A stretch of DNA of 64,000 nucleotides from an uncultured Acidobacteriota bacterium (GCA_964586015.1 CAZPHK010000003.1:358-64357); one strand, 5' to 3'; positions 1 through 15,923 are shown, numbered from the stretch's first letter. A program made the numbers and translations. Notes: a model not told the origin generated them from the letters alone.

Positions 1-59
1 AGAGGGCATCCGGGGCCAAAGGGGTGGCTGAGGTCCACCAATTTCATATTGTCGCTCAT
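1..59 (-). CDS. N-terminal fragment of a cyclase/arylformamidase-like protein; the gene runs off the left edge
   Basis: Minus-strand ATG at 59 (second in-frame ATG at 47) preceded by GGAG. Reads MSDNMKLVDLSHPFGPGCP, like the MKxxDLSHP start of cyclase-family proteins. Only 19 codons are visible. Confidence 0.3.
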   Translation of the reverse strand, partial: MSDNMKLVDLSHPFGPGCP

Positions 60-81
60 TTCATAAACTCCAATCTTATCT

Positions 82-873
82 TTATCCGGCGACGGTGCCG
101 CCGTCCACATACAGGATTTGCCCGGTTACAAAATCAGACGCGGGAGAGGAAAGATAAACGGCAGCCCCGACGGAATCCTGAGTCAGCGCCGCCCTGCCCA
201 TGGGAATCCTGGACATGAAAATTTTGAACATCTGTTCGTTGTCCAAAACCTCCTGCGTCAACGGTGTCCAGAAAATACAGGGCGCGATCGAATTGACATT
301 GATGTTGTATTTCGCCCATTCGGTCGCTAACTGTTTGGTCAGCAGATTTACCGCGCCTTTACTGGTCCCGTAGGCGGCGTACCCGCTCGGATGCCCCGCA
401 AAGGCCCGTACGGACGAGATCGTGACGATTTTCCCCTTTTTCTTATCCTTGAAAATTTTTCCCACATGCTTGCAGCAGAGAAAGGTTCCCCGTACGTTTA
501 TGTCCATCACCTGCTGCCAGTCATCGATGGGAAATTCCTCTGCGGGAAAACGTTTTGCAATACCGGCGACGGTGACAAGGATATCCACGGTGCCGAACGC
601 CTTCAGTGTTTCCTTCACCAGGTTCTCTACATCCTCTTCAACAGAGACATCGCAGCAAATCGCCAGGGCTTTCCGGTCTAAAGCCTCGACGTCTCTGACA
701 ACCGGCCGGAGCGTCTCCAGTGTGCGGCCGGTTACCACAACATCGGCGCCATAAACCGCCAGTCCCTGTGCGATTGCCTGTCCCAGGGCTCCGGCGCCGC
801 CTGTCACGACGGCCACTTTGCTTGTGAGGTCGAACATGTTTCGAACGTAGTTCAGGTCAATGCGTGATTCCAT
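82..873 (-). CDS. Short-chain dehydrogenase/reductase (SDR) family oxidoreductase
   Basis: 263-aa ORF with Rossmann motif VTGGAGALGQAI and catalytic YAAYGTSKGAV (YxxxK). Confidence 0.9.
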   Translation of the reverse strand: MESRIDLNYVRNMFDLTSKVAVVTGGAGALGQAIAQGLAVYGADVVVTGRTLETLRPVVRDVEALDRKALAICCDVSVEEDVENLVKETLKAFGTVDILVTVAGIAKRFPAEEFPIDDWQQVMDINVRGTFLCCKHVGKIFKDKKKGKIVTISSVRAFAGHPSGYAAYGTSKGAVNLLTKQLATEWAKYNINVNSIAPCIFWTPLTQEVLDNEQMFKIFMSRIPMGRAALTQDSVGAAVYLSSPASDFVTGQILYVDGGTVAG

Positions 874-905
874 ATATTCACCGCCTTTCGCCGGATCGTT
901 CCAGC

Positions 906-1244
906 TTATTTGTATGTAATGATCACGAGCATGCTTGCAGGCCTGTTCGTATTGTTGACTATTGCCCTGGCTTCGTTGGGACCGACATACAATGAATCCC
1001 AGGACTTCAGCGCAAATGTTTCGTTCTCCGGAGTTGTTACCGTTACTTCCCCCTCAAGCACGAAATAAAGCTTTTCAGCCGGAGTCGCGTCCATCTCGGC
1101 ACCGCCGTTCGGCAGGAAATGGGAGAGACCCATCCAGAACTGCTGCGTTCCTGTTTCCTCTTTTCCATGCAGCTTCAACGCGGTCATATTGAAGTGTTTG
1201 GGCGGCGCATAGGGCTTCGCATCCAGAAATTCCACCTTTTTCAT
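906..1244 (-). CDS. Cupin domain protein
   Basis: 112-aa ORF of small beta-barrel type (GGAEMD...YFVLEGEVTV...GPNEARAI). Lies 32 nt upstream of the SDR gene on the same strand. Confidence 0.6.
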   Translation of the reverse strand: MKKVEFLDAKPYAPPKHFNMTALKLHGKEETGTQQFWMGLSHFLPNGGAEMDATPAEKLYFVLEGEVTVTTPENETFALKSWDSLYVGPNEARAIVNNTNRPASMLVIITYK

Positions 1245-1338
1245 CTTGTCTCCTTTCTTTGTTGCTGGAGCGTATCACATTATGGTATTAGAATACCACA
1301 ATGCGGTTTACGACACTTTCTCAAAAGGAGACCATGTG

Positions 1339-1722
1339 ATGAAATCGATAAAAGTCCTGCTTATTATGTCTGTCGCTCTTGTCTGCCTCGTTCCGGCATT
1401 CGCAGCCGACATTTCAGGCAAGTGGGAAGCCGTTATCACCACCCCGATCGGCGAGATGAACTACACTTTCGACTTTAAAGTTCAGGGTGAAAAACTGACG
1501 GGAACAGCCGTGATGTCCATGGGAGGAGAAGAATCCAGCAGATCCGCTTTAACGGAAGGCTCCGTGAAGGGTGATGAAATATCGTTTGTCGAAACGCTGA
1601 ATGTTCAGGGCCAGGAGCTCCGAAGCGAATATAAAGGCAAAGTCACAGGGGACAAGATTAGAGGTTCCCGAACGGTCGGCAGCTATCCGAGCGAGGATTT
1701 CGTCGCGAAACGCGTCAAATAG
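1339..1722 (+). CDS. Small secreted protein of unknown function
   Basis: ATG at 1339 follows AAGGAG (1325-1330). N-terminus MKSIKVLLIMSVALVCLVPAFA is a signal peptide. The longer track ORF from 1246 has no RBS. Confidence 0.55.
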   Translation: MKSIKVLLIMSVALVCLVPAFAADISGKWEAVITTPIGEMNYTFDFKVQGEKLTGTAVMSMGGEESSRSALTEGSVKGDEISFVETLNVQGQELRSEYKGKVTGDKIRGSRTVGSYPSEDFVAKRVK

Positions 1723-1796
1723 CATTTCGGATTCCAAGATCCGTCAGACGGATTCTGCGGCGAACAGACCGATTTCCTGAATCCTGGAGAGCAACC

Positions 1797-2732
1797 ATGG
1801 CCGACAAGCTGATTATCACTTCCGCGCTCACAGGCGCGATCACGATTCCAACACAGACGCCTCACCTGCCATTTACACCGGAACACCTCATCGCGGATGC
1901 CATCGCATGCAGCCGGGCCGGCGCCTCGGCCGTTCACGTGCATGCGCGCGATCCCGTGAACGGCCGCCCGCTTTCCGATCCCGATCTCTTCGAGCCGATT
2001 CTGAAAGGGATCAAGGCCGCGAGCAACGCAGTGGTCGGGATTACCACCGGCGGGGGCATGGGCATGTCCCCGCAGGACAGGCTGCGCGTGATCCCGCGAT
2101 ACCGCCCCGAACTGGCGTCGTTCAATCTCGGAAGCATCAACTTTTCCATACACCCGGTGGCAAAGAGATTCAAAGCCGGGGATTATAAGTACGATTGGGA
2201 ACAATCATACGTCGAAGGCACGAAGGATTTCATCTTTCGAAACACATTCGGCGATATGGAAACCTATTCCAGCACCTTCGCAGAGAACAACGTGCGTGCT
2301 GAATTTGAAGCCTATGATGTAGGGCATCTATACAATCTTCGGTTCCTGGTAAAGAACGGACTTGCGAAGCCTCCTTTATGGATTCAGTTTGTTCTGGGTG
2401 TCCTTGGCGGCCTGGCGGCGACCATCGAAGATCTTATAGTGATGAAGCAAACGGCCGACAGGCTCTTCGGAAGCGAGAATTACAAATGGTCGGTGATTGG
2501 CGTCGGTTATCCCGCCGAGATCAATCTTGCCGCGGTGGCGATCATGATGGGCGGCCATGTACGCGTAGGCCTCGAAGACAACATCTTCATCGGTAAAGGC
2601 AAGCACTGCACAAACGCGCAACTTGTCGAAAAGATCGTTCGGCTTGCGCGCGAGTTCGACCGGGATATCGCGACACCGGAGGACATGCGGGAAATTCTGG
2701 GGTTAAAAGGCGCGGGAGCGGTCGGATTCTGA
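1797..2732 (+). CDS. BKACE-family (DUF849) beta-keto acid cleavage enzyme, 3-keto-5-aminohexanoate cleavage enzyme-like
   Basis: 311 aa. N-terminus KLIITSALTGAITIPTQTPHLPFTPEHLIADAIACSRAGASAVHVHARDP is typical of the family. Confidence 0.8.
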   Translation: MADKLIITSALTGAITIPTQTPHLPFTPEHLIADAIACSRAGASAVHVHARDPVNGRPLSDPDLFEPILKGIKAASNAVVGITTGGGMGMSPQDRLRVIPRYRPELASFNLGSINFSIHPVAKRFKAGDYKYDWEQSYVEGTKDFIFRNTFGDMETYSSTFAENNVRAEFEAYDVGHLYNLRFLVKNGLAKPPLWIQFVLGVLGGLAATIEDLIVMKQTADRLFGSENYKWSVIGVGYPAEINLAAVAIMMGGHVRVGLEDNIFIGKGKHCTNAQLVEKIVRLAREFDRDIATPEDMREILGLKGAGAVGF

Positions 2733-2733
2733 T

Positions 2734-3402
2734 ATGAACGCGAATAAATTCATCAGCTGCGCCGAGGCTGTTGCGATGATCCCGGACGGAGCCTCAATCA
2801 TGATAGGAGGATTCATAGGTGTCGGGTCGCCTCATCGCATTATCGCCGAAATGGTTCGGCAGGGCCTGAAAAATCTTACGATCATCGCCAACGATACCGG
2901 CACGGAGAGTTTCGGGATCGGTCGGCTGGTTATGGCAAAGATGATCCGCAGGCTCGTTGCTTCTCATATCGGGTTGAATCCCGAAACGCAGCGGCAGGTG
3001 ATCGCGGGCGAGATAGAAGCGGAATTCTGCCCGCAGGGCACACTGGCAGAAAGAATTCGCGCCGGAGGTTTCGGGCTCGGCGGGATCCTGACTCCGACAG
3101 GCATGGGAACCGTAGTTGCAGAAGGCAAGCAGGTGATCGAAGTGGACGGGAGGCAATACCTGCTTGAAAAGCCTATAACGGCCGATTTTGCACTGATTGC
3201 GGCTCATCGTTCCGATTATCGAGGCAACCTGGAATATTCCCTGACCGCGCGCAATTTCAACACCGCTATGGCCACAGCCGCCCGGACCGTTATCGCGGAG
3301 CCGGAACATATCGTCCCGACCGGCGCCATTCCCCCGGATGCGGTTGCAACCCCGTTTGTTTGCGTGCATCACATCGTTGAGAGGGCCGGAACCAATGGAT
3401 AA
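2734..3402 (+). CDS. 3-oxoacid/acetate CoA-transferase subunit A
   Basis: 222 aa. DGASIMIGGFIGVGSP...LTIIANDTG resembles AtoD-type A subunits. Starts 1 nt after the BKACE stop. Confidence 0.85.
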   Translation: MNANKFISCAEAVAMIPDGASIMIGGFIGVGSPHRIIAEMVRQGLKNLTIIANDTGTESFGIGRLVMAKMIRRLVASHIGLNPETQRQVIAGEIEAEFCPQGTLAERIRAGGFGLGGILTPTGMGTVVAEGKQVIEVDGRQYLLEKPITADFALIAAHRSDYRGNLEYSLTARNFNTAMATAARTVIAEPEHIVPTGAIPPDAVATPFVCVHHIVERAGTNG

Positions 3403-4048
3403 TAAGGTGCTGATTGCGAAACGGGTGGCTCTTGAATTAAACAGCGGGAGCCTTGTAAATCTGGGCATCGGCCTGCCTACATTAGTTCCCAGGTATTTGC
3501 CTCCAGGCAGGGAAGTCTACTTCCAATCCGAAAACGGCATCATCGGCATGGCTCCGGTACCGGGAGCAGGAATGGAAGAACCCTCGCTCATCGATGCCGG
3601 CGGAAGCTTCGTCGGCGCCATTCCCGGCGCCGCCAGCATCGACAGCTGCCTTTCATTCGGCCTGATCCGCGGTGGTCATCTCGATTTGACCGTTCTCGGC
3701 GGCCTGGAAGTGGACGAGCAGGGGCGGCTGGCAAACTGGATGGTTCCGGGAAAGATGCTGCCGGGGATGGGCGGCGCTATGGATCTGGTAACCGGCGCCA
3801 AGCGCGTTATTGTCGCTATGTCCCATACAGCCAAAGGCAAACCGAAAATTGTAAAACAATGCTCTCTCCCTTTGACATCCGTGCGGCGAGTCAGCCTGAT
3901 TGTGACGGAAATGGCCGTGATCGAACCAACGGACGAGGGTCTGGTTCTCCGGGAGACAGCGCCGGGAGTAACCATAGAAGATATAGTAGCCGCGACGGAG
4001 GCCAGGCTAATTATTCCGACACACATTCCCGAAATGCCGTTAGAATAA
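3395..4048 (+). CDS. 3-oxoacid/acetate CoA-transferase subunit B
   Basis: Starts MDNKVLIAKRVALELNSGSLVNLGIGLPT. Carries the catalytic-Glu motif SENG. ATG at 3395 overlaps subunit A by 8 nt. Confidence 0.85.
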   Translation: MDNKVLIAKRVALELNSGSLVNLGIGLPTLVPRYLPPGREVYFQSENGIIGMAPVPGAGMEEPSLIDAGGSFVGAIPGAASIDSCLSFGLIRGGHLDLTVLGGLEVDEQGRLANWMVPGKMLPGMGGAMDLVTGAKRVIVAMSHTAKGKPKIVKQCSLPLTSVRRVSLIVTEMAVIEPTDEGLVLRETAPGVTIEDIVAATEARLIIPTHIPEMPLE

Positions 4049-4486
4049 GACTCCACAACAGTTCATTCCTGATCCCAAAGCTGCGGCAGGTCGTCGTCCA
4101 TGAATCTTCAACAAAAAGAGGAAGGGAGTCATTGAATGACCGGGGATAAAAACTGCTATTTCCTCTTGCGTCGATATGCTGCTAGCATCTATCCGGATCG
4201 GTTGTAGGATAGGGAATGAATCTCGTTTTCGTTCAAGTCGCTCGGTATTACAGTGCAGGCCGCTTTCATGAGAGCTTCGTCAATGATAGTCTGACCACTT
4301 AACGCGCCGGTCAACAGCAGCGTAGAGAATAAGAATGCAACGCGCTGTGGAATTCGGTATTCAGTCATGCTCATTTCCTAGGGCCTCTTCTCGGTCTGAT
4401 AAGTTTATGCAAATGCGTCGTCGCTCACGACATCGCCCAACAGCCGCCTTTATTTATAAAGTCTGCATTATTTAGAAAACTACATA

Positions 4487-5091
4487 GACTGGTTATAGTT
4501 CAAGATATATGAAGTGTAAAATTCTCAATGCGGGATAATTTTAGAACACTTCCATGCAGGAGAATAAAACTTTCTTCAATGGCCTCTGTAAGGAACTAAA
4601 GACAAAAGGGAAATTTCGGGCGTTTCATTAATATTTTGTTTATTGTGTAATAATGGAACATCGATTATTTGAGAAATCCTTTCGAGCTTTTCAATAAGGC
4701 GGGATGATATGACCGATTGCCCTTTCTGCACGCGAATCAACCGTTCGGACATCATCGCCGGCAATGAACTTGCCGCTGCATTTTACGACGGCTTCCCGGT
4801 GAGCCCGGGTCACACGCTGATTGTACCGCGCAGGCACGTGGCCGATTTTTTCGCCCTGACCGGCGAGGAGCAGGCGGCGATGTGGACGCTGGTCGCTGCC
4901 GTGCGGCGGATCCTCCAAGAAAAGCACGCGATCGACGGGTTCAATATCGGCATCAATATCGGCGAGGCGGGCGGCCAGACGATCGCGCATGCCCACCTGC
5001 ACGTCATCCCCCGATACGCGGGCGACGTCCCCGATCCGCGCGGCGGCATCCGATGCGTGATTGCAGCGAAAGCACGCTACTGGAAGGAGCC
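4487..5091 (+). repeat. Copy 1 of a perfect 605-bp direct repeat (leader + HIT gene)
   Basis: Identical to 9238-9842 (offset 4751). Every track ORF inside it recurs with an identical protein. Confidence 0.95.
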
Positions 5092-5095
5092 CTGA
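4709..5095 (+). CDS. HIT (histidine triad) family nucleotide hydrolase/transferase, copy 1
   Basis: 128 aa with histidine triad HAHLHVIP. N-terminal CPFC is typical of small HIT proteins. Confidence 0.9.
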   Translation: MTDCPFCTRINRSDIIAGNELAAAFYDGFPVSPGHTLIVPRRHVADFFALTGEEQAAMWTLVAAVRRILQEKHAIDGFNIGINIGEAGGQTIAHAHLHVIPRYAGDVPDPRGGIRCVIAAKARYWKEP

Positions 5096-5328
5096 CTGAA
5101 ACCACCTGCCCCCTGTGCGGGGAAGAAAGCCTGCAAACAATGCAGGGCACGTTCCGCTTCGATCCGCCACCCAACATTCCCGGCGGAACCATGATCATTC
5201 CGAATGCAACGTGGCAGCACTGCACTGCCTGCAACGAGGACATTATTCCATACGAGCTGGATCAGGCTATCGATCGCGAGCATGACAGACGGCTGGGACT
5301 ACCCGACCTCGAGAAGGGGCTTTCTTAA
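5053..5328 (+). CDS. YgiT/MqsA-type zinc-ribbon protein with no HTH domain
   Basis: CPLCG...(31 aa)...CTAC, followed by a short helical tail. Start is uncertain: ATG 5053 lies inside the HIT gene, or CTG 5092 overlaps the HIT stop at the position where copy 2 has ATG. Confidence 0.6.
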   Translation: MRDCSESTLLEGALTETTCPLCGEESLQTMQGTFRFDPPPNIPGGTMIIPNATWQHCTACNEDIIPYELDQAIDREHDRRLGLPDLEKGLS

Positions 5329-5424
5329 AACGCTTCACATTCTACTGCCGTTTCTCCGGATCCAGACTTTTATGAAAGATACTATAATGGGATATAGACG
5401 GTTGCAGACGGGGAAAACACTAAA

Positions 5425-5895
5425 ATGATTGAGTTTAAAACAGGCAATATTTTCTCTGAGGATGTTGAAGCCTTGGTTAATGCCGTCAATTGCGTCGGGG
5501 TTATGGGACGCGGAATTGCTCTCCAATTCAAAAAATTATGGCCTGCAAATTTTTCTGCCTATACTGCGGCATGCCACAGGAATGAAGTTCGGCCAGGACA
5601 AATGTTTGTTTTTGAAACAGCCCGCTTAACAAATCCGCGCTATATTATCAATTTTCCGACTAAACTCCACTGGCGTGATGCCTCACGTATTGAAGATATC
5701 GAGTCGGGGCTCGCCGCGCTCGTCGTAGAGATTCGAAAGCGGAATATTCAATCAATAGCGTTGCCGGCCATTGGCGCTGGTCTGGGCGGACTGTCATGGG
5801 ATGCAGTCCGCGCTCTTATCATGAAAGCGATGAAATCAGTCGCCGGAAGAAAAATTGTTGTTTACGGACCATACAGTGACAATGATTCACCCTAA
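5425..5895 (+). CDS. Macro domain protein (ADP-ribose binding / ADP-ribosyl hydrolase type)
   Basis: 156 aa. GNIFSEDVEALVNAVNCVGVMGRGIALQF and ALPAIGAGLGGL match macro-domain signature regions. Confidence 0.85.
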   Translation: MIEFKTGNIFSEDVEALVNAVNCVGVMGRGIALQFKKLWPANFSAYTAACHRNEVRPGQMFVFETARLTNPRYIINFPTKLHWRDASRIEDIESGLAALVVEIRKRNIQSIALPAIGAGLGGLSWDAVRALIMKAMKSVAGRKIVVYGPYSDNDSP

Positions 5896-5994
5896 AAGGT
5901 TTAAAACATCCGGTACGTGAAACGTAGAATAAGCCTCATATGACACCTGCAACCGAGCCAGGGAGGATTTGCCTCCATACCGATTTTTATTACA

Positions 5995-6023
5995 TTGACT
6001 ATTAATAGAATAGGTGTATAAAT
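5995..6023 (+). promoter_or_regulatory. Candidate sigma-70 promoter for the HD gene
   Basis: TTGACT (5995-6000), a 16-17 nt spacer, then TGTATAAAT (6015-6023). About 100 nt upstream of ATG 6127. Confidence 0.4.
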
Positions 6024-6126
6024 GGTGAATATAGATTGCAAAACAAAATTGCCAATTGATTTATAAGTTTCTCAGACAATGCTTCTTGTTATCAGATAAA
6101 TCAAAAGCTCGTGCGAAATCAGAACT

Positions 6127-7452
6127 ATGATCAAGAATATTCATGAAATCCGGGACCCGATACACGTTTTTGTAAGAATGGACACCGATGAGCGTAAGGT
6201 ATTGAATTCCCGGGCATTTCAGCGATTGCGGCACATCCACCAATTGGCCTTGTCTTACCTGGTATATCCCGGCGCCAGCCACAAACGATTCGAGCATTCA
6301 CTGGGTGTGATGGAATTATCCGGCAGAGTTTTTGATATTGTCACGCATCCGGATTCAGTCTCGGAACAAATACGAAAAATTTTGCCCGAAATTGCTATTG
6401 AAGACAAAAAGAGATATTGGAGGCGTGTAATTCGAATGGCGGCATTGTGCCATGACATCGGCCATCTGCCATTTTCACATGCAGCGGAGAAGCAGCTGCT
6501 TCCTGACGGGTGGGATCATGAACGGCTAACCAAAGAAATAATTCTTTGTGAGGAGATGCAAAAAATCTGGTCCGAAATGACTCCCCCTATTCGACCCGAA
6601 GATATTGTAAAACTGGCGGTAGGACCAAAATCCGCTGCCATGCCTTTTTCAAGTTGGGAGGCCATTCTTTCCGAAATCATTGTTGGGGATGCTTTCGGTG
6701 TCGACCGCATGGACTACCTGCTGCGGGATTCTCATCATATCGGAGTCAGTTATGGGAAATTCGATCATTATCGCCTGATCGACACACTCCGCATTCTTGT
6801 ATCTCCCTATGATGAAGAAAATGCAAGATTTTCCGAGCCAGTCCTCGGGGTTACGGAAGGCGGGATTCAATCCGCAGAAGCGTTGCTTCTGGCAAGATAT
6901 TTTATGTACTCCCAGGTTTATTTTCACCCCATCAGGAGAATTTATGATATTCATCTGATGGATTTTCTTAAGGACTATTTACCTGACGGCAAATTCTCAA
7001 CGGTAATTGATGATCATCTTCAAATTACAGACCATGAAATTATTGCATCTATGCTTGATGCGGCACGCAATTCCTCAAAAAGGGGTCATAAAACCGCAAA
7101 GAGAATTACGGATCGCCGGCATTTTCGTATTTTATACGAGCGTAATCCCGATGATATAAAGATCAATCCGGAAGCCGGGCAAGCAGTCTATGAGGCTTTG
7201 CTGGAGATATTCGGCGATGAAAACCTCAGACATGATAAAGATACACAGAAAGGCAGCGCTCATAACTTCCCGGTTCTCACTCGTGATGGTAGGATTGTTT
7301 CTTCCATGGAAATTTCGGAAGCATTGAATAATTTGCCTCTTATTGCAGTGGATTATGTGTTTATTGCGCCGGAACATAAAAAGGATGCTGAAGCATGGCT
7401 ACAAAAGAATCGTGAACGCATCATAGCGGCAAAATTTGAGGAGGAAGCATGA
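6127..7452 (+). CDS. HD-domain phosphohydrolase, SAMHD1-like dNTP triphosphohydrolase family (COG1078 type)
   Basis: 441 aa. Motifs HKRFEHSLGV, CHDIGHLPFSHAAE and FGVDRMDYLLRDSHHIGVSYG. Confidence 0.85.
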   Translation: MIKNIHEIRDPIHVFVRMDTDERKVLNSRAFQRLRHIHQLALSYLVYPGASHKRFEHSLGVMELSGRVFDIVTHPDSVSEQIRKILPEIAIEDKKRYWRRVIRMAALCHDIGHLPFSHAAEKQLLPDGWDHERLTKEIILCEEMQKIWSEMTPPIRPEDIVKLAVGPKSAAMPFSSWEAILSEIIVGDAFGVDRMDYLLRDSHHIGVSYGKFDHYRLIDTLRILVSPYDEENARFSEPVLGVTEGGIQSAEALLLARYFMYSQVYFHPIRRIYDIHLMDFLKDYLPDGKFSTVIDDHLQITDHEIIASMLDAARNSSKRGHKTAKRITDRRHFRILYERNPDDIKINPEAGQAVYEALLEIFGDENLRHDKDTQKGSAHNFPVLTRDGRIVSSMEISEALNNLPLIAVDYVFIAPEHKKDAEAWLQKNRERIIAAKFEEEA

Positions 7453-7994
7453 ACCGGCTAAAAAACTGCGTTTTGATACTGGAACTCTTAGAAAAGCTAA
7501 AGGATAAAGGAAGCTGGTGCGGAGAAACGCACATTCAGAAAGCTTCTTACTTTTTAAAAACGCTTGCAGATGTGCCTATGGATTTCGATTTCCTTCTGTA
7601 CAAACACGGGCCTTTTTCTTTTGAATTACGCGACGAATTAACGGCAATGCGAGCGGACGGATTGTTAAGCCTGCAGTCAAAATTTCCATACGGCCCGACG
7701 CTGGTTATCACGGACCAGGGCCGGGATCTTTTAAAAAAATTCCCGGTAACTTTAAAAAAATACAAAACCAACATTGATTTTGTTGCTGATAAATTGGGAA
7801 GCAGAGGAGTGGCCGATCTGGAAAAATTAGCGACCGCACTTTACGTCATAAAAGAGGAATCCTCCAGCACAACCAAGGAACAATACATAGCACGCATTAA
7901 CGAAATAAAACCACACGTCACTTTGCAGGAAGCTGAAAACGCCGTCGAAAAAGTTCAAAATATTATGGACGAATTCGTGACAGCTCAGGACTGA
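7449..7994 (+). CDS. Small partner protein of the HD gene; DUF4065/Panacea-like or YwgA-like (tentative)
   Basis: 181 aa with an ATGA overlap onto the HD stop. THIQKASYFL...FLLYKHGPFSFELRDEL resembles the KLQKLLYF...GP core of SocA/Panacea-type domains. This is recalled from memory, not searched. Confidence 0.6.
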   Translation: MNRLKNCVLILELLEKLKDKGSWCGETHIQKASYFLKTLADVPMDFDFLLYKHGPFSFELRDELTAMRADGLLSLQSKFPYGPTLVITDQGRDLLKKFPVTLKKYKTNIDFVADKLGSRGVADLEKLATALYVIKEESSSTTKEQYIARINEIKPHVTLQEAENAVEKVQNIMDEFVTAQD

Positions 7995-8099
7995 TACATT
8001 GAATGCAGTCAATCATCGCAGAATATCCTGCCCTGCAATGGAAAGCACCGAATGTCCGCGGATATAAAAAATTCGGGATAAGATATCCGTAGAAGATGT

Positions 8100-9083
8100 T
8101 CACCGCCGGAAGCAATGATCGCGGTGCCAGGACAGCGCCGCGGGATCGGGACGGCAGATCGGATTCGATGGTGCAACAATTCCTTCACCGTCGTACTCTT
8201 CGAGGTCGAACTTCTGCCTTTCGGCGCGGTGAACCGCGGGGCTGACCAAAGCTTCACTGGCATCCGAAATTGTGAACAGGCCGGCGTCGAAGGCCCAGTG
8301 GTGGCGCTTGCACAAGGAAATCGCGTTGCGAATGTCATCGGGTCCCCGGTCTGCCACAGGGATGATATGGGCTGCTTCCGCTTCGCTGAGCAGTGTATCC
8401 TGTTCCCTTAAAACGAACATGGAGCGGCACAGGCAGCAAATGCGGCCGTACTCCGCCGACACCAGAAGCTTGAATGCCCGGTCACGGGCTTCACGGCTGG
8501 AGATGTAGCGGCTTCTTTCCTCCGCGATCGTCATGGGGAGGATTAATCCGCTTCTCAGATAGGTCTCTTCAATTTGCTCGGGAGTCCCAACCCCGGCAAA
8601 GGGCTCTATTACCGCAGGCGTGCTTCCCGTGACGCGAAAACGGCGGCTCCCTGCATCAAATGAAGTAAGCAGGGCCGGTCCCAGTATGCGGTAGCGGGCG
8701 CCCTCCGGATGTCCCGATCCCCTGGAGGTCACGATGACCAGGAGGGGCTGTTTGTCCTCCATGCATGCGAACAGAGATCTGTTTACCGCTGAATCCAGCG
8801 CCCCTGATTTGGCTGCATATTCCATCAGCCAGCCGCCATCAGGGGACTGACTGAACTCATCGGAATATATTTCGGCATCGGCACCGACCGCGGACCTGCT
8901 CCAGACGGCAAATGCATACCGGCTGTCTTTGGGTTTGAAGATGCCTTCAATCAGCGGGTGAATCTGCGAAATCCCGGCTGAAGGAGCGTGACGATCCGTA
9001 TGGCGCAGAAAATCAGAGGTGACGTCAAGACCGGTATATTTCGATAAGGCAAATATTGCGCGCAGACGCTGTTCAGGCGTCAT
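8100..9083 (-). CDS. HNH (HNH_2-type) nuclease with an N-terminal putative modified-DNA-reading domain; possibly the 3' part of a TAG-interrupted gene
   Basis: 327 aa. C-terminal AAHIIPVADRGPDDIRNAISLCKRHHWAFDAGLF is an HNH motif. An in-frame 41-codon ORF (9093-9215) lies directly upstream, separated only by a TAG. Confidence 0.75.
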   Translation of the reverse strand: MTPEQRLRAIFALSKYTGLDVTSDFLRHTDRHAPSAGISQIHPLIEGIFKPKDSRYAFAVWSRSAVGADAEIYSDEFSQSPDGGWLMEYAAKSGALDSAVNRSLFACMEDKQPLLVIVTSRGSGHPEGARYRILGPALLTSFDAGSRRFRVTGSTPAVIEPFAGVGTPEQIEETYLRSGLILPMTIAEERSRYISSREARDRAFKLLVSAEYGRICCLCRSMFVLREQDTLLSEAEAAHIIPVADRGPDDIRNAISLCKRHHWAFDAGLFTISDASEALVSPAVHRAERQKFDLEEYDGEGIVAPSNPICRPDPAALSWHRDHCFRR

Positions 9084-9237
9084 GATTCTCTATCCCCGGA
9101 AATTGGTATCGGCATGCCAATCCAGCAGCTCCTTATTGGGTCTTTTGACCGGATCTTCAGAAGCAGGGAAATCAATCCATCCCCTGTCCGTGATGCCGAC
9201 ATAGGTTTTCAGCATTGGCTAATCCCACAAATTCTTC

Positions 9238-9842
9238 GACTGGTTATAGTTCAAGATATATGAAGTGTAAAATTCTCAATGCGGGATAATTTTAGAACAC
9301 TTCCATGCAGGAGAATAAAACTTTCTTCAATGGCCTCTGTAAGGAACTAAAGACAAAAGGGAAATTTCGGGCGTTTCATTAATATTTTGTTTATTGTGTA
9401 ATAATGGAACATCGATTATTTGAGAAATCCTTTCGAGCTTTTCAATAAGGCGGGATGATATGACCGATTGCCCTTTCTGCACGCGAATCAACCGTTCGGA
9501 CATCATCGCCGGCAATGAACTTGCCGCTGCATTTTACGACGGCTTCCCGGTGAGCCCGGGTCACACGCTGATTGTACCGCGCAGGCACGTGGCCGATTTT
9601 TTCGCCCTGACCGGCGAGGAGCAGGCGGCGATGTGGACGCTGGTCGCTGCCGTGCGGCGGATCCTCCAAGAAAAGCACGCGATCGACGGGTTCAATATCG
9701 GCATCAATATCGGCGAGGCGGGCGGCCAGACGATCGCGCATGCCCACCTGCACGTCATCCCCCGATACGCGGGCGACGTCCCCGATCCGCGCGGCGGCAT
9801 CCGATGCGTGATTGCAGCGAAAGCACGCTACTGGAAGGAGCC
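9238..9842 (+). repeat. Copy 2 of the perfect 605-bp direct repeat (leader + HIT gene)
   Basis: Identical to 4487-5091. Confidence 0.95.
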
Positions 9843-9846
9843 ATGA
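9460..9846 (+). CDS. HIT family nucleotide hydrolase/transferase, copy 2
   Basis: Protein identical to copy 1. The only difference is the last codon, CCA versus CCC, both Pro. Confidence 0.9.
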   Translation: MTDCPFCTRINRSDIIAGNELAAAFYDGFPVSPGHTLIVPRRHVADFFALTGEEQAAMWTLVAAVRRILQEKHAIDGFNIGINIGEAGGQTIAHAHLHVIPRYAGDVPDPRGGIRCVIAAKARYWKEP

Positions 9847-10943
9847 CCGTTTCAACCGGCACGGACGCGACTATTCGTTTCGCGGAAAAAATACTGGAGC
9901 TGCTCGAGGAAGGCAGATTCAGCACCACGTACAAACTTGCAGTGCTGCTGGCGCTGATGGATCTCTGTTTTGAAAAGAACGCCGCCGCCGGAATGGCGCC
10001 CGAAAGCGTGACCACGCGCCAGCTCGCGGAGAAGATCATCGAAATCTACTGGCCGCATACGGTCGACTATCATTCCACGGCAGCGGTACTGAAACAAAGT
10101 AGGGGAAAACAGGCGCAGATCCCGGCCGCGATCCTGCGGTTTCGGCGCGATCAGGCGCGCATTGCGACAGCGTCTCTGCACCGGGCAAAGGGTGCCAATC
10201 CTTTGGAATATGAGCGTCTGGTGCGATCTGTGGAATGGACCCTGGTCGAAATGCCGCTCCCGAGACTGCAAACGGTCGGCTTGAGTCGCGATCCCTTCAT
10301 TTATGAAATCAACTGGGACGAAACGGTGCGCCGGAGAGATCTGTACCATGACTTTGACAACCTCATCCGCTTCAAACCGGGCGCCGGGGATTGTTTAATT
10401 CAGCTCAACAGCCTGCTGCGCCCGCTTGTCCACAAGAAGTGGGCATCGATGGTCTCCCATATCAATAAGCTGCCGGAAAATCAGCTGGAGGATTTCCTGT
10501 TCGGGATCGACCGTTTATCCAGCGCGAGGATCCGGGAAAGCCTCTGGGAAATTCAGGGGAAGGACTGCTTTTACTGCGGGGAGCGCATTCCCGAACCGCG
10601 TCGTGGAGATGTGGATCACTTTATCCCCTGGTCGCGCTATCCCGATAACGGTCTGGAAAATCTGGTAGTGGCGCACAGGCGCTGCAACAGCGACAAGCGA
10701 GACTTTCTAGCCGCCACCGGGCATGTGGAACGATGGGGAGGACGGTTCTCTTCGGATCGGACCGGATCGACGGACCTGGCGGTGCTCGCCGAATCCGCAG
10801 GATGGGAGAGGGATCCCGTCAAAACCCGGGGCGCTGCGAGGGCACTCTATCTCCGCTTGCACGCCGATGCCCGGCTCTGGAGCGAAGGCAAGAGCTTTGT
10901 AACTCCCGACTTTCCCCGGCTGCATGCGGCACTGTGCGATTGA
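9843..10943 (+). CDS. HNH endonuclease with a large N-terminal domain of unknown function
   Basis: ATG 9843 overlaps the HIT stop (ATGA). C-terminal CFYCG...DVDHFIPWSRYPDNGLENLVVAHRRCNSDK is an HNH motif. The track ORF from 9633 is an out-of-frame overlap with the HIT gene. Confidence 0.8.
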   Translation: MTVSTGTDATIRFAEKILELLEEGRFSTTYKLAVLLALMDLCFEKNAAAGMAPESVTTRQLAEKIIEIYWPHTVDYHSTAAVLKQSRGKQAQIPAAILRFRRDQARIATASLHRAKGANPLEYERLVRSVEWTLVEMPLPRLQTVGLSRDPFIYEINWDETVRRRDLYHDFDNLIRFKPGAGDCLIQLNSLLRPLVHKKWASMVSHINKLPENQLEDFLFGIDRLSSARIRESLWEIQGKDCFYCGERIPEPRRGDVDHFIPWSRYPDNGLENLVVAHRRCNSDKRDFLAATGHVERWGGRFSSDRTGSTDLAVLAESAGWERDPVKTRGAARALYLRLHADARLWSEGKSFVTPDFPRLHAALCD

Positions 10944-11204
10944 AGGATATCCGTGTTCCTTCTTCGTACCGTGGTTCCGGGCCCGTCGGCTCCGGCGTAT
11001 TGATATTCTCAGAGTATAAAAGGGCGAATGGCGTCTTTGGGCCGAAGCTCGCAAACCTCCCGCTGTGAATTAGGATTCCCGGCCGGCCAATTCGTTAAAA
11101 CGTTGCGTTCGAATGCAACGCTTTCGGGGACGCAGAAGTGTTTTACGCCGTCAGCTGCCGGTGAACAGCCGGCGCGGCTGCAATTCATTCCAAAGGAGAA
11201 CTCC

Positions 11205-11987
11205 ATGCGCTATGAAGAATTTCGGGATCACCTGCAAATCGCTCTTCGGGATGCGGGGATTCTGCGGCAGAGTTATGTCACCACGAACGAGTCCATAGAC
11301 CTTAAAACCACGACACGTCACCTGGAAATCTACATTTCGGGACCATCGAATCCCGATACGGAACCGTTTTACGTGTCGGCGAAGATAGCGTTCGACTGGA
11401 ACCCCTTCGACTCCGCCCGCTCGTATACCTGCGAGGAAGACCTGCTCACGGAGCTGCTCGGCCGCGGGAAAACTCCGTCAAGGATTCGACCCCGGCATAC
11501 TCGCGTCGATCTCGTGCTGCGAGCGAACCTCCCCTGGGGTTCAACAGCTGCTGTCCCTGAACCCCGGATATTTGGTACCTGGGCAGCCTCTTTGCGGCAG
11601 GAGCTCGATGAAGTGTTCACGGAAAGCAGCTGGCGCCGCGGGCAACTCGCAGCCATACTTGGATCCCTGGAAGAAATCCACATCGATTCAAAGCCCGATT
11701 CCACCGGTCGTCTTTCGATCGAGGGCTTATCTATTAAAGGATTCCGCATGGTTCGCGTCCCGAGGATTTGGGACGACCCGGACCGGCGCGAAAAGGAAAA
11801 GGGCGCGGGAACGGAACTCGCCCGGCTCGCCAGAAAGTTCCGGTACTCGATGGAAGAATGGAATACGGCCATAATCGAACTTTCCAGATGGATACGATAT
11901 GCACCCCCCCCTGATGATGCGAAGCGGACAGCGCCTCCACCGAAGAGAAAGTCTCATGACGATGGCGGTCCGGAAACGATTCACTGA
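11205..11987 (+). CDS. Hypothetical protein
   Basis: ATG 11205 follows AAGGAG (11192-11197). 260 aa with no recognisable motif. Confidence 0.5.
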   Translation: MRYEEFRDHLQIALRDAGILRQSYVTTNESIDLKTTTRHLEIYISGPSNPDTEPFYVSAKIAFDWNPFDSARSYTCEEDLLTELLGRGKTPSRIRPRHTRVDLVLRANLPWGSTAAVPEPRIFGTWAASLRQELDEVFTESSWRRGQLAAILGSLEEIHIDSKPDSTGRLSIEGLSIKGFRMVRVPRIWDDPDRREKEKGAGTELARLARKFRYSMEEWNTAIIELSRWIRYAPPPDDAKRTAPPPKRKSHDDGGPETIH

Positions 11988-12163
11988 CGGAGACGGCTCT
12001 CTACGATTCAAGCCGCCGCCGTCAGACTGTTGCTGCAGGTAATAATTCATGATAAATGGTTGTATTTTGTAAGGATGAGGCTTGAGTTTATGGATGTATA
12101 ATCAGGCTTCTGCTGAAAGAGCCGGGAAAGGTCGAACGATTAAACGACAGGGAGTAAGAAATC

Positions 12164-13333
12164 ATGCATCGCTTTATCAAGAACAGATCCGCCATTGCGG
12201 TTTCCGTCGCGGCGGTTATGGCGCTGGCGACAGCCGCGGGAATATCCGCCTATAAGACGCACCAGGAAAAGGACTCCGGCCTTTTTTTCAAAACCTATCC
12301 GGATCTGGCCGGAACCGGGATGGACGGATGCGACGCGTGCCACGGCCGAATTTCCGGCCTCCCCCCGGGAGCCGCCGAAGGGAAAGCGGTGATTCTGAGC
12401 AGCTGCGATTCCTGCCACCGTATCACGGACTACGGCCGCAAGGCGGGAAACACGCTGAACGCTTACGGCCGCCGCTATCTGAATGCGGGAAGGGATGCGG
12501 CAGCCTTCGCGGCCATCGCGGCCCTTGATTCGGACGGCGACGGCTTCCGGAATGACGTCGAGCTCCAAGCCGGGACAAATCCCGGCGATCCGCAGAGCGC
12601 GCCCGATAAAAAGCCGGCGCCGTACGTCGAGGTGGCTTTGAGCGAACTGATTCAAAAGGGCGTTCCGGCGTACGATCAGGCAATCTTCGTAAATGTGACG
12701 AAATCAAAGGGTGGGGACAGCTATTCCGATCTGCGCGGATTCAAACTCATCGACGTGCTCGAGGCCGCGGGGTTGACGGAAGAGGCGACCAGCATCGATG
12801 TCATCAGCGTGGACGGGTACATGACGACCTTTTCCATCGAGCAGCTGCGCCGGTCCTACCCGCAGACGGCGCCGGTTATGGGACTGGACAAAGCAACCCT
12901 GGGAGAATGCGGCTGGGTCCGATACGACGCCGGGAACCTGAAGGAGGGAATCCCCCTCCCCGACGCCGACATTCTTCTGGCCTATGAAGAAAACGGAGAA
13001 CCGTACCCGCCCGCTTCCGTAAACGGCGAGGGGCGCCTGACGGGAAGCGGCCCGTTCCGCGTCGTCGCCCCTCAAATGAAAAATCCGGGGATCCCGGACC
13101 TTTCAAGCCGGGCATCGGACGACTGCGTGAAAAAACTGCCGGAAAAATTCCACTACAACAAAAATTACGAAAAGAACTCCGACTACTGCGTCAAAGCGGT
13201 CGTGGCGATCAGGGTGAATCCGATGCCGGCCGGCACGATGGACATTGACTGGCCGCGATATACGGCCAAAGCGATTGCGGAGAAAAGCGTTGTAATTTTC
13301 GGCGCGCTGAAATCGAAGCGGCCCGGGACATAG
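12164..13333 (+). CDS. Secreted di-haem c-type protein with a C-terminal molybdopterin-oxidoreductase-like (SUOX/YedY-fold) domain
   Basis: Signal peptide, two CXXCH motifs (CDACH, CDSCH), a DSDGDGFRND Ca-binding-like motif, and LLAYEENGEPYPP...GPFRVVAP resembling the Oxidored_molyb fold. Confidence 0.65.
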   Translation: MHRFIKNRSAIAVSVAAVMALATAAGISAYKTHQEKDSGLFFKTYPDLAGTGMDGCDACHGRISGLPPGAAEGKAVILSSCDSCHRITDYGRKAGNTLNAYGRRYLNAGRDAAAFAAIAALDSDGDGFRNDVELQAGTNPGDPQSAPDKKPAPYVEVALSELIQKGVPAYDQAIFVNVTKSKGGDSYSDLRGFKLIDVLEAAGLTEEATSIDVISVDGYMTTFSIEQLRRSYPQTAPVMGLDKATLGECGWVRYDAGNLKEGIPLPDADILLAYEENGEPYPPASVNGEGRLTGSGPFRVVAPQMKNPGIPDLSSRASDDCVKKLPEKFHYNKNYEKNSDYCVKAVVAIRVNPMPAGTMDIDWPRYTAKAIAEKSVVIFGALKSKRPGT

Positions 13334-13438
13334 CCCTACTTTGACGATTCTGCGGTGAAATTGACGCGCCGCCTTCAAATGAAGGAGCGATTTACGGCCC
13401 GGCGCCCGCCCTGATACGGAAAGAAATCCCACACGGCA

Positions 13439-14935
13439 TCAAACTCCGGCTTCGTCTCGCCAGAGATGAAGCGCCCGGCCGGGTGCGGGATCATCCCGGT
13501 AAGTGTCGAAAACTTCGCACAGCATGTCCGCCAGATACGCCATGCTGCCGATCGTCCGGGTCCTCGTTTCGGCATCGATAAGCCGCTTTATCTCGAGAAA
13601 ACGAAGCCACGCCGGGATCAGCTCAAAAAGGGCGGCCGTGCGGTGATACAGCTGGTTCATCATTTCCAGCTGGCGGGCAAGATAGTGTTCCAGCCTCTCC
13701 GGGTCCGGAACCAGCAGGTGTTCGTAGCGCCGGTATTTCCGTTTGGGCTTTCGCCGCCGCTTTTTCTTCCGGCCCATGTCCCGCTCGACGGATTCCAGCA
13801 GGCTTCCCCTGTATTCCAGCCCGCCGTTATGCCGTTCCACCAGGAACCGGTATAGTTCCCTCCTTCCGAGTTCCCCCTTGGCACAGGGTACGCCCTCGAC
13901 CCGGCCCAGATAGCCCAGGAATTCCAGGGTCAAATGATAAAGATTCAGCTCGCCGTCCGAATGACTGTCCCCTTCCTCAATCGCGTCTTCTTCATCTTCT
14001 TCATCCATGCCGTTCCGGGGGGGCGGAAGCTTGAAATCGTTCATCGTCCACTGCCTCCCGGTTCCGCCAGCGAGATTCGCGAGATTAGCGGCTATCTCCT
14101 TCTCATCCGTTTCCCCGTAAAACCTTAGCTGTTCCAGCAGCCCGGCATCCGGCCCGACCGTCCCGGGCGTCCGCTCCGCAAAGTTCAGGATTTCATAGAA
14201 CATGGCACGGATGCGGAAATCATCCACGCCCCATGGGACGATATTGTCCGAAGACTCCACATGCGGCCAGGCAATGCGCATGGAATCGACGAGAGCCTGC
14301 AACTGGCCGTGATATGCGGACATTTCTTCAGTCCGGTTGAAAAGGTCGATATCGCGGCCAGCCAGAAGGGCCTGCTCCTTGAGGAGATCCGGGAGATTCC
14401 CGTACCGGGCATCGGCCAGTGCATTTTCAATCCGCCATTTCACTAAAAAGGGCGCTTCCGCCGCATAGGTTTCGGGCAGGCGCAGGCGCAGATTTTCGAC
14501 CATCGCATCAAAGCGGTTTCGCTCTCCATGTTCGACGGTTTCGTCGAAGAGATCCTGCAGCATCTCATACGCCATGTCCCCGTCCATTAGCTCCGGATCG
14601 TCCAATGTCCGGCTGAAAATGCCGAACTTGTCCTCGTAATCGGCGGCCTCAAACTCCTCCAAAAGCTCCTCGAAGACTTCCAGCTGAGGTCCCTCTTCCC
14701 AATCCTCCGATTCAAGATCCTGATCGTCATCTTCCAGGGACGATTCCCAATCCTCTGCATCAGCTTCAAAATCCACGTCATCTTCCAGGGACGATTCCCA
14801 GTCCTCTGCATCGGCTTCAAGCTCGGCTATTTGGGCTTTCCTTATTTCTTCGTCTTTGGCAAGGCAGCATTTTTTATATTTCTTTCCGCTGCCGCAATGA
14901 CAGGGTTCGTTGCGCCCCGGCATCTTCCGATTCAT
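13439..14935 (-). CDS. SEC-C motif protein with an acidic tandem repeat
   Basis: PCHCGSGKKYKKCC near the N-terminus. The start at 14935 (MNRKMPGRNEPC) has an AAGGGA RBS and avoids overlap with the upstream gene. Confidence 0.7.
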   Translation of the reverse strand: MNRKMPGRNEPCHCGSGKKYKKCCLAKDEEIRKAQIAELEADAEDWESSLEDDVDFEADAEDWESSLEDDDQDLESEDWEEGPQLEVFEELLEEFEAADYEDKFGIFSRTLDDPELMDGDMAYEMLQDLFDETVEHGERNRFDAMVENLRLRLPETYAAEAPFLVKWRIENALADARYGNLPDLLKEQALLAGRDIDLFNRTEEMSAYHGQLQALVDSMRIAWPHVESSDNIVPWGVDDFRIRAMFYEILNFAERTPGTVGPDAGLLEQLRFYGETDEKEIAANLANLAGGTGRQWTMNDFKLPPPRNGMDEEDEEDAIEEGDSHSDGELNLYHLTLEFLGYLGRVEGVPCAKGELGRRELYRFLVERHNGGLEYRGSLLESVERDMGRKKKRRRKPKRKYRRYEHLLVPDPERLEHYLARQLEMMNQLYHRTAALFELIPAWLRFLEIKRLIDAETRTRTIGSMAYLADMLCEVFDTYRDDPAPGRALHLWRDEAGV

Positions 14936-14975
14936 ATTCCCTTTCTTCTGCAGGTCTGAGGGGATACGCTTTTTT

Positions 14976-15923
14976 TCATTTCGGGCTTTCAATAACCGGT
15001 ATTTCCCATAAAGGCTGGTGCTCTTCTTCACTCGTCAGGTAGAGCGTCTTTCCATCCGGACCGTAGCAGATGGATTCGCCCTGTTTGCGAGCCGGCGCTT
15101 TAATGATCCGGGGTTCTCGCGAGAATGCCCGGGCCCAGGTTTCGCCTTCCCCGCGGGAATATTCATACGCATCGCCGTATGTCAGGACGACGGCGCGATC
15201 ACCGTCCGGGGAGATATCCATCCCATTGGCATAGCTGACTTTGAGCCGGGCAATCGGTTTTGCGATATTCGGCTCTTTTGATTCTTTCGCCGGAAAGGGC
15301 ATGGAATAAACCGTACATTCTCCGACATCCTTGCTGACAAGATAGATCGTGGATTCGGCCGGGTCCACCGCCACTGCTTCACTATCAAGGGGCCCGTTTT
15401 CATACCGGAAGCGGATCTGAAAATCCGGTTCGACTTCAACGACCGGCGCTTCTTTCGCCGTGGAGTGGATGCCGATCGCGGGTTCCCTAATAATATACAG
15501 GACGTAGCTTTCGCGCTTTCTTGCATTGTCTCCTGTATCGGCGATCAGAACGTAATCCTCATTTCCGCGCCTGAACGATGCAATATCCTCCCAGTCGACG
15601 GCAGCCACCCCTCTGATATTGACCACGGCAAGGGTCCTGCCTTCCTTGTCGATCAGGAAAATGCGGGCGGAGTCCCCGGAATCATTGTGCGTCCAGAATG
15701 CATCTTTGTATCGAATGGACGCCGCGATGCCGCTGGATTCGTTTATGCGGGCATCCTCGAGCTGCGACAACTCCCTTGGCGGACCGTATTGCAGGGGCGG
15801 GACGGATTCGGCGCCTGTCCGCACCGAAACGGAACGCGCACAATTCGCCGACATCAGGCAGAGGGACAGCAGCACCGGGGCAAAAAAGACAGAAGCGGAA
15901 TTTATTTTTGATCGCATTCGCAT
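14976..15923 (-). CDS. Secreted beta-propeller-like protein of unknown function
   Basis: 315 aa with a signal peptide (VFFAPVLLSLCLMSANC). Recurrent SSG / DxGD / PDG strand motifs. Confidence 0.6.
   Translation of the reverse strand: MRMRSKINSASVFFAPVLLSLCLMSANCARSVSVRTGAESVPPLQYGPPRELSQLEDARINESSGIAASIRYKDAFWTHNDSGDSARIFLIDKEGRTLAVVNIRGVAAVDWEDIASFRRGNEDYVLIADTGDNARKRESYVLYIIREPAIGIHSTAKEAPVVEVEPDFQIRFRYENGPLDSEAVAVDPAESTIYLVSKDVGECTVYSMPFPAKESKEPNIAKPIARLKVSYANGMDISPDGDRAVVLTYGDAYEYSRGEGETWARAFSREPRIIKAPARKQGESICYGPDGKTLYLTSEEEHQPLWEIPVIESPK

Follow-up and report, generated by a model that had tools for sequence, protein, structure and literature searches.

A perfect 605-nucleotide direct repeat carrying a HIT gene in a strain-variable island of an uncultured Acidobacteriota bacterium

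The window analyzed here is a stretch of 64,000 nucleotides from an uncultured Acidobacteriota bacterium (GCA_964586015.1, CAZPHK010000003.1:358-64357), and the subject of this report is a segment of 605 nucleotides that occurs in it twice. A base-by-base comparison at an offset of 4751 demonstrated that positions 4487-5091 and 9238-9842 are identical, with 0 mismatches and in direct orientation. An earlier note on this DNA had described the repeat and the unrelated sequences upstream of its two copies, and that description was correct in every detail. Each copy comprises an AT-rich leader and a complete gene for a HIT family protein, followed in copy 1 by an open reading frame for a Zn-ribbon protein and in copy 2 by a gene for an HNH nuclease of 366 residues, hereafter HNH366. 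The features on which the argument depends are listed below. The letters L, R, X, and Y refer to the left flank, the repeat, the block between the copies, and the HNH366 side, respectively.

4090-4486: L, left flank of copy 1 and first segment of the island, starting ~41 nucleotides past the stop codon of the CoA-transferase B gene

4487-5091, plus strand: repeat copy 1 (R1), identical to 9238-9842, the derived copy

4487-4532 (also 9238-9283), plus strand: r1, the first 46 nucleotides of the repeat, native HNH_2 flank carried along

4654-4707 (also 9405-9458), plus strand: start-less remnant of a small upstream open reading frame, ending in ...DYLRNPFELFNKAG and a stop codon, with no start codon

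4709-5095, plus strand: HIT gene of copy 1, 128 residues, PF01230, HAHLHVI histidine triad

5092-5328, plus strand: Zn-ribbon open reading frame with two CxxC pairs, its start-codon position (5092-5094) now CTG

8100-9083, minus strand: HNH_2 endonuclease gene, 327 residues, PF13391 (E = 3.8e-12), divergent from copy 2

9238-9842, plus strand: repeat copy 2 (R2), the source copy, in ancestral context

9460-9846, plus strand: HIT gene of copy 2, same protein as 4709-5095

9843-10943, plus strand: HNH366, the native HIT partner, 366 residues, Pfam HNH_4 (E = 1.7e-10), Cas9-type HNH core

9434-10959, plus strand: extent of the HIT-HNH366 cassette, which recurs in otherwise unrelated surroundings (BLASTN against positions 6086-7611 of contig L002)

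The left end of the repeat is marked by the first mismatch, A at 4486 versus C at 9237, and further upstream the two sequences match only at the random level. At the right end the first mismatch is C at 5092 versus A at 9843 (GAGCC-CTGAC versus GAGCC-ATGAC). Beyond it TGAC (four nucleotides) is common to both copies and five of the seven following nucleotides match; similarity is then gone. That identity would stop at a stop/start junction, with CCC versus CCA as the last HIT codon, had been claimed beforehand and was borne out at 5092/9843. A BLAST comparison of the window with itself pairs 4487-5096 with 9238-9847 (610 nucleotides, 99.84%) and reveals no other perfect or near-perfect repeat in the 64 kilobases, the runner-up being 132 nucleotides long at 86%. 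A perfect match over 605 nucleotides cannot be chance, and the duplication of the leader and the HIT gene is true.

The leader in each copy extends over 222 nucleotides (the earlier estimate was ~220) with a G+C content of 33.8%, as compared to 63.3% for the HIT open reading frame, which encodes an identical protein of 128 residues in both copies. The HIT domain, Pfam PF01230, covers residues 11-104 (E = 6e-23) and displays the HxHxHxx triad of the superfamily, with H94, H96, and H98 invariant among 40 homologs. The family as a whole yielded 4,940 matches at E <= 1e-10. In both copies the HIT stop codon overlaps the start position of the next gene. Note that the last HIT codons of copy 2, TGG AAG GAG CCA, contain an AAGGAG ribosome-binding site that would serve whichever gene comes next. 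The repeat can thus be read as a complete expression head consisting of a promoter region, the HIT gene, and a ribosome-binding site. Promoter and terminator scans gave background levels only. A riboswitch or structured leader was ruled out by the lack of an Rfam match and by a fold test in which the secondary structure was not significant (z = +0.25).

The comparisons identify copy 2 as the original and copy 1 as the derived one, and with that the direction of copying, because the right side of copy 2 is ancestral (contig L002 and 22 loci, below) and its left side is continuous in contig L086. On L002, a Joint Genome Institute (JGI) metagenome contig, a HIT protein with 86% amino acid identity is followed by an HNH protein (P0137) with 85% identity across the same GAGCCATGACC junction. 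By BLASTN, positions 6086-7611 of L002 are 83.9% identical in nucleotide sequence to window positions 9434-10959, and the flanks are unrelated. The survey of 81 HIT loci covered other species, with one genome scanned per species. In 22 of these an HNH366 homolog lies directly downstream of HIT, the two genes overlapping as ATGA, GTGA, or TTGA in 15 of the 22. In the window this overlap, between the HIT stop codon and the HNH366 start codon, is ATGA. HIT and HNH are fused into one chain in proteins P0249 (489 residues) and P0140, and the same pair is found on plasmid 2 of Aromatoleum aromaticum EbN1. HIT-HNH366 is accordingly best described as a conserved two-gene operon in which a small HIT family nucleotide hydrolase/transferase is translationally coupled to a nuclease via ATGA. 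A further HIT-HNH module, listed beside those of the window (9434-10959) and of L002 (6086-7611), lies at positions 3684-5056 of contig L094.

With regard to the left side, the Logan contig L086 derives from a strain that lacks HIT-HNH366. Its HNH_2 gene and flank proceed uninterrupted across the position equivalent to 9238 as far as 9283, with an equal level of divergence on either side of 9238, and the sequence then jumps to the region adjoining window position 11018. Because this homology is unbroken, the first 46 nucleotides of the repeat represent the native flank of the HNH_2 gene. The remainder is the cassette's own leader, including the small-ORF remnant also present in L002, together with HIT. 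Indeed, the remnant DYLRNPFELFNKAG aligns with the C-terminus of an open reading frame of 63 residues that precedes HIT in L002 and ends in ...DFLQERYELFKKAG and a stop codon. Both joints of copy 2 are confirmed by another Logan contig (L001, SRR9700623), which covers 9200-10110 with two single-nucleotide polymorphisms.

Copy 1, on the other hand, contains only the 5' head of the HIT-HNH366 operon, namely the 46 nucleotides of HNH_2 flank, the AT-rich leader, HIT, and the ribosome-binding site. The Zn-ribbon family, searched for in 5.8 billion clusters, has one other member, P0122, with 63% identity. Its N-terminus, MSPDICPLCGE, aligns residue for residue with (L)TETTCPLCGE of the window, and the ancestral start codon of the Zn-ribbon gene is therefore placed at 5092-5094. 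The recorded NCBI protein, P0121 (91 residues), begins instead at an in-frame ATG at 5053, which lies within HIT. No HIT gene is found upstream on the P0122 contigs, and homologs of the Zn-ribbon, macro-domain, HD, DarG C-terminal-like, and 319-residue proteins were not observed near HIT in any of the 81 other loci. On these grounds the adjacency of HIT and the Zn-ribbon gene is unique to the lineage of the window. HIT as the native Zn-ribbon partner is ruled out, since the sole other family member lacks an upstream HIT, as is an association of HIT with the macro, HD, or DarG-C-like genes elsewhere (0 of 81 loci). The C at 5092 is the sole difference in 610 nucleotides; it leaves the HIT protein unchanged and removes the ATG of the Zn-ribbon gene. 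Chance, a joining error, or selection for lowered Zn-ribbon translation may account for it. The leader-HIT head of copy 1 may affect expression of the Zn-ribbon, macro, and HD genes.

Other assemblies provide independent views of three of the four repeat joints, the exception being R/X. Contigs L087 and L092 match the window, including the CoA-transferase genes, only up to 4089, and the left edge of the variable island was accordingly set at 4089/4090. Contigs L088, L091, and L093, from three separate European Nucleotide Archive (ENA) assemblies, cover the CoA-transferase genes, 4090-4486, and the L/R joint, and follow the window as far as 4652 with 97-99% identity. All three then show the identical joint 4652/10082, which lands inside the HNH366 gene, and L093 runs on to 11757. 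This arrangement is referred to as allele b. Compared with the window it lacks the following segment:

4653-10081: 5,429 nucleotides missing from allele b, namely everything in R1 past 4652, the block, R2, and 239 nucleotides from the start of the HNH366 gene

What is left of the gene encodes a truncated HNH protein, P0154. The breakpoint at 4652 is 1 nucleotide before the leader remnant (4654-4707), and the joint has 1 nucleotide of homology. The allele b contigs establish the L/R joint as genuine, and they place L on the same chromosome as the sequence downstream of HNH366. The path from X through R to Y is reproduced in one contig, L001. One of the allele b strains (L088, positions 2260-2309) has 50 additional nucleotides in its L flank, inserted at window position 4116.

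On balance, the arrangement probably arose by a segmental duplication through illegitimate recombination, in which the head of the operon was copied 4.75 kilobases upstream onto the start of the Zn-ribbon gene. The two copies are direct and identical, their outer flanks are unrelated, and one of them stands in its ancestral context, as observed for segmental duplications. Given that the passages from X to R and from R to HNH366 are both ancestral, L/R and R/X are the new joints. The exact mechanism and the contribution of gene conversion are what we infer from this geometry. The right joint would have formed by illegitimate recombination in a short homology at the 5' ends of both genes (ATGAC, provided that the Zn-ribbon gene once started with ATG like its homolog; TGAC is still common). 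By one route, the 4,751-nucleotide unit running from the Zn-ribbon gene through HNH_2 and R would have been tandemly duplicated with a single new joint, between the end of R and the Zn-ribbon start, and a later deletion of the upstream block copy, together with anything between L and X, would have created the L/R joint. By another, a single replication template switch would have inserted R, with the same end product. Thereafter the island would go on losing segments by short-homology deletions. The position of the joint at the stop/start overlap possibly stems from the microhomology of the overlapping signals or from selection that kept both reading frames intact.

Several observations weigh against such a duplication. 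The tandem route demands two events, and neither an X-R-X-R intermediate nor a direct L-X adjacency was found. The joint between the end of R and the Zn-ribbon start (5091/5092) is seen in the window only, none having been found in pattern scans of JGI metagenomes, and the Zn-ribbon protein is recorded from the source contig alone. A joint formed in the ATGAC microhomology predicts A at 5092, whereas C is seen, so that an extra substitution in the start codon must be assumed. Finally, the perfect identity of the copies conflicts with the divergence of the strains unless gene conversion is invoked. Although the allele b strains have the L/R joint, they are 0.6-2.5% divergent from the window in L, in the first 166 nucleotides of R, and in the downstream region. 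If their common ancestor was already duplicated, 4-15 differences between the copies would be expected; 0 were seen (Poisson P = 0.03 to 1e-7). For a duplicated ancestor, this result points to gene conversion over a very recent event. The copies may thus be very young or may have been kept identical by gene conversion, and of the earlier proposal of "a very recent duplication or gene conversion" the duplication stands, gene conversion is a live option, and "very recent" is doubtful. Two orders of events are compatible with these data, since allele b may be one step removed from the arrangement of the window or from a hypothetical L-R-Y form with a single copy.

Direct repeats of 605 nucleotides that flank 4.1 kilobases are subject to RecA-dependent deletion or amplification of the 4.75-kilobase unit, as is established in bacterial genetics, and the repeats of the window can be predicted to act as substrates for either. 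The loop-out geometry proposed in the earlier note was correct at 4,751 nucleotides, and strains without the intervening block do exist. They are not the simple product of recombination between the repeats, however, for the natural joint is 4652/10082. Another short-homology deletion is seen in L085 (Logan SRR13394437), in which the HD gene has lost 6765-7431 at a joint (6764/7432) with an imperfect homology of eight nucleotides. With 4652/10082, 6764/7432, and the 50-nucleotide indel in L, deletions of this kind are common in the island.

A Campbell-type or episomal origin is unlikely. According to it, a circle of 4,751 nucleotides, carrying R and the genes from the Zn-ribbon to HNH_2, recombined through R with an L-R-HNH366 chromosome, or else such a circle and an L-R-Y chromosome were threaded into one path by the assembler. 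An assembly graph would show the same links from L to R, X to R, R to X, and R to Y whether the unit is integrated or present as a circle beside a chromosome that has lost it, and R to X alone is without independent support. In addition, strains exist in which L is linked to HNH366 and the downstream region and the block between the copies is gone. Those strains show the 4652/10082 joint, however, rather than an intact L-R-Y. The 4.75-kilobase unit contains no recombinase, replication, or mobilization gene, and with the first 46 nucleotides of R belonging to the HNH_2 flank, an L-R chromosome would need an earlier rearrangement and thus more events.

A distinctly improbable explanation is that the Zn-ribbon block was originally headed by a diverged HIT gene of its own, which overlapped it as ATGA, and that gene conversion from copy 2 later overwrote this gene together with its leader. 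Identity stopping exactly at a shared stop/start overlap is what two HIT-led operons would give, HIT has several partner families elsewhere, and 0 differences in 605 nucleotides call for conversion anyway. A conversion tract, however, needs homology at its left end, where the sequences upstream of 4487 and 9238 are unrelated, and the tract takes in 46 nucleotides of HNH_2 flank as well as a leader, both native to the copy 2 locus. The sole Zn-ribbon homolog without an upstream HIT argues against it as well, as does the total lack of Zn-ribbon, macro, HD, or DarG-C-like neighbors in the 81 HIT loci.

Programmed or recurrent exchange of partners, with the leader and HIT as a recombination anchor that would place effector cassettes behind one head in the manner of orphan toxin cassettes or shufflons, is very unlikely. 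It was suggested by the earlier note, and across phyla HIT homologs do precede, or are fused to, different defense-type partners; moreover, R ends exactly past the ribosome-binding site as a complete expression head. Direct repeats only delete or amplify, however, and cannot swap partners, and neither an inverted copy nor a recombinase was found. The left end of the repeat is an arbitrary piece of neighboring HNH_2 flank, the start codon of the Zn-ribbon gene is damaged (CTG) and its homolog lacks HIT, none of the 81 loci pairs HIT with the block between the copies, and the type of partner tracks the HIT clades, which makes exchange a rare event over long times. The idea of HIT as an anchor for programmed downstream exchange is not supported.

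Equally little probability is attached to an assembly artefact, a chimeric path through the k-mers of co-existing strains with no genome carrying two copies. The contig was assembled from a metagenome, several strains are found together in related samples (ERZ27283387 gives both L087 and L093), short reads resolve an exact repeat of 605 nucleotides poorly, and L001, unbroken through R, hints at a single copy in its sample, a reading that depends on how Logan contigs are constructed; against this, two of the three joint types recur in independent assemblies, L is physically linked to HNH366 and the downstream region, the joint from R to X must exist in the reads because its sequence (…GGAGCCCTGACTG…) is unique, and no other suspicious repeat occurs in the 64 kilobases.

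The repeat is embedded in a strain-variable, fast-changing island of defense-type genes (4090-11017) in an Acidobacteria-like host. The flanking CoA-transferase genes and the genes downstream are conserved among close strains, and the island between them differs. It contains HNH nucleases, a DarG-like macro domain, an HD hydrolase, and the HIT-HNH pair. Besides those given above, the genes between the copies are the following:

5425-5895, plus strand: macro-domain gene, Pfam Macro (E = 6e-26), matching positions 1-148 of 329 of the PADLOC DarG profile (E = 4e-72)

6127-7452, plus strand: HD/HD_assoc_2 phosphohydrolase gene (Pfam), 441 residues, with a weak PADLOC dGTPase match

7449-7994, plus strand: gene of 181 residues resembling the C-terminal half of DarG, PADLOC DarG positions 166-321 (E = 2e-12)

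A DarG-like antitoxin thus appears to be split into halves at 5425-5895 and 7449-7994, with the HD gene (6127-7452) between them. No DarT profile match was observed among the island open reading frames scanned with PADLOC. The gene of 181 residues, which possibly encodes an antitoxin-type domain, starts within an ATGA that overlaps the HD stop codon, and the two may constitute a toxin-antitoxin-like pair. In L085, positions 3102-3943 correspond to window positions 6607-6764 joined to 7432-8123; the upstream context differs, with a major facilitator superfamily (MFS) transporter, and the DarG-C-like gene is retained with 96% identity. Orthologs of the HNH_2 gene, at 90-95% nucleotide identity, are present in L086 and L089 next to different neighbors. 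The slot between the HNH_2 gene and the open reading frame of 319 residues (9084-11017 in the window) is variable; it is occupied by HIT-HNH366 in the window, by 129 nucleotides of a different gene in L086, and by 612 nucleotides with an AAA_14 gene fragment in L089 and L090.

No recombinase or integrase was found among the island open reading frames (Pfam, PADLOC), no tRNA in the 64 kilobases, and no inverted repeat of at least 40 nucleotides in positions 1-20000. Elsewhere in the window, two 45-nucleotide copies at 14725-14820, 96% identical and spaced by 51 nucleotides, encode acidic DAEDWESSLEDD segments; they sit in a minus-strand open reading frame (13439-15031) with a SEC-C-type motif as judged by eye. 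Other diverged direct repeats pair 36450-36581 with 38721-38851 (86%) and 61921-62143 with 63164-63386 (73%), and these are probably paralogous gene segments.

The HNH366 family numbers at least 1,215 homologs. An AlphaFold2 model of HNH366 (pLDDT 83, pTM 0.82) consists of a helical N-terminal region of ~220 residues and a Cas9-type HNH core. The N-terminal region has no Pfam match, and a sequence search of the PDB matched the HNH core only. With the model as a query, Foldseek returned Cas9-type HNH domains only, at E >= 0.018. An N-terminal domain of the sulfur-binding or winged-helix type was considered, and no such assignment was obtained from Pfam, the PDB, or Foldseek.

A second recurrent partner of HIT is a protein of ~1,000 residues with a MazG-like-PLD-ResIII/helicase architecture, which was observed in nine loci, three of them with a HIT fusion. 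Examples are found in L050 (693-3773) and in L012, L028, and L059, where HIT is fused and the C-terminal extensions comprise 929-1201 residues. Singleton partners, on sequence inspection, are of the McrB-like, DUF262-like, or HNH_2 type. In a neighbor-joining tree the partner type follows the HIT clades, so that partners change rarely and on a deep evolutionary scale. The variety is best viewed as modularity at the level of clades rather than as switching within one genome. HIT thus does combine with several partner families over deep time, but the block genes are beside it in 0 of 81 loci.

Homologs of HNH366 are found in defense contexts, and the family is hardly represented in viral contigs. 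On an Acinetobacter plasmid (NZ_CP090068.1; L096, 3391-4987), a class I S-adenosylmethionine (SAM) methyltransferase takes the place of HIT and overlaps the HNH366 homolog, and directly downstream of them come a WYL regulator and a BREX system. Full-text literature searches gave no earlier account of a HIT-HNH system, only the HIT protein ThsC of type II Thoeris in PADLOC. HIT-HNH366 is a reasonable candidate for a defense module that is apparently unnamed.

A bolder reading holds that the 605-nucleotide segment serves as a portable head for expression and control, that it was grafted onto the Zn-ribbon/macro/HD block by selection and not by accident, that the heads are kept identical by gene conversion, that NTGA overlaps are splice points for operon shuffling, and that HIT and HNH366 form an undescribed, widespread two-gene defense system. 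Taken as a whole this is unlikely. If it were true, HIT would supply a function needed by several nucleotide- or DNA-targeting effectors, for example the removal of a nucleotide signal or protection from the cell's own nuclease. Quite apart from this, the locus is a natural snapshot of operon rebuilding in a defense island, with ancestral, duplicated, and deleted forms in environmental assemblies, and it has brought to light a conserved pair of HIT and HNH-nuclease genes, with its family of at least 1,215, its fusions, and its plasmid occurrence. It does not overturn current understanding, for the mechanism would be classical duplication and deletion, an ordinary shuffling of operons rather than a new kind of element.

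How, then, does the locus compare with known systems? A mobile element (insertion sequence, miniature inverted-repeat transposable element, or transposon) was rejected, there being no terminal inverted repeats, target duplication, transposase, or extra copies. The ends of the repeat, GACTGG... and ...GGAGCC, are not complementary, the flanks CTACATA and CTGACTG are not duplicated, HIT is the sole gene inside the repeat, and the copies in the 64 kilobases are two only. An integron-type gene cassette was set aside, with no recombinase among the island open reading frames and a leader lacking significant structure or an Rfam match, as was a viral origin, with one weak HNH366 match among 2.9 million viral contigs.

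Type II Thoeris includes an accessory HIT protein, ThsC (PADLOC; PMC8565338). As in Thoeris, a small HIT family protein is here tied to defense, and the HIT protein of the window gives a weak match to the ThsC profile (E = 1.5e-11). Neither ThsA nor ThsB was observed among the eight island proteins in the PADLOC scan, however, and the conserved partner is instead an HNH nuclease. The ThsC match reflects general HIT homology. The resemblance to DarTG concerns the block between the repeats and not the repeat itself. The macro gene corresponds to the N-terminal half of DarG and the gene of 181 residues to the C-terminal half, but here these are separate genes with the HD gene between them, and DarT is lacking among the scanned island open reading frames.

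In the orphan toxin/immunity cassettes of Rhs and contact-dependent inhibition (CDI) loci, a conserved upstream stretch lets downstream modules swap by homologous recombination. The window likewise displays a conserved 5' segment repeated before different downstream modules, between which recombination is possible. Unlike in those loci, the repeated unit is a whole gene with its promoter rather than part of a large toxin gene (its 3' part), and the repeats, of which there are two copies only, are direct and flank the alternative module, such that recombination leads to deletion and not to a swap. The island also resembles defense islands and hotspots with a rapid turnover of cassettes, in that its nuclease, DarG-like, HD, and HIT-HNH content varies between close strains, but it showed neither an integrase nor a tRNA nor the backbone of a mobile element. 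Its turnover appears to proceed by illegitimate deletions and duplications rather than by insertion of elements.

The closest parallel is thus the classical model of duplication and amplification in bacteria, in which illegitimate recombination at a short homology is followed by deletion or amplification between direct repeats. The window shares with it two direct, identical copies a few kilobases apart, one ancestral context, and deletion derivatives in the population, and its new joint may likewise lie at a homology of four to five nucleotides. It departs from the model in that only the head of an operon is doubled, which would need a second deletion or a template switch, and in that the joint is base-exact at a stop/start overlap, where a head composed of promoter, gene, and ribosome-binding site would have been grafted onto another gene.

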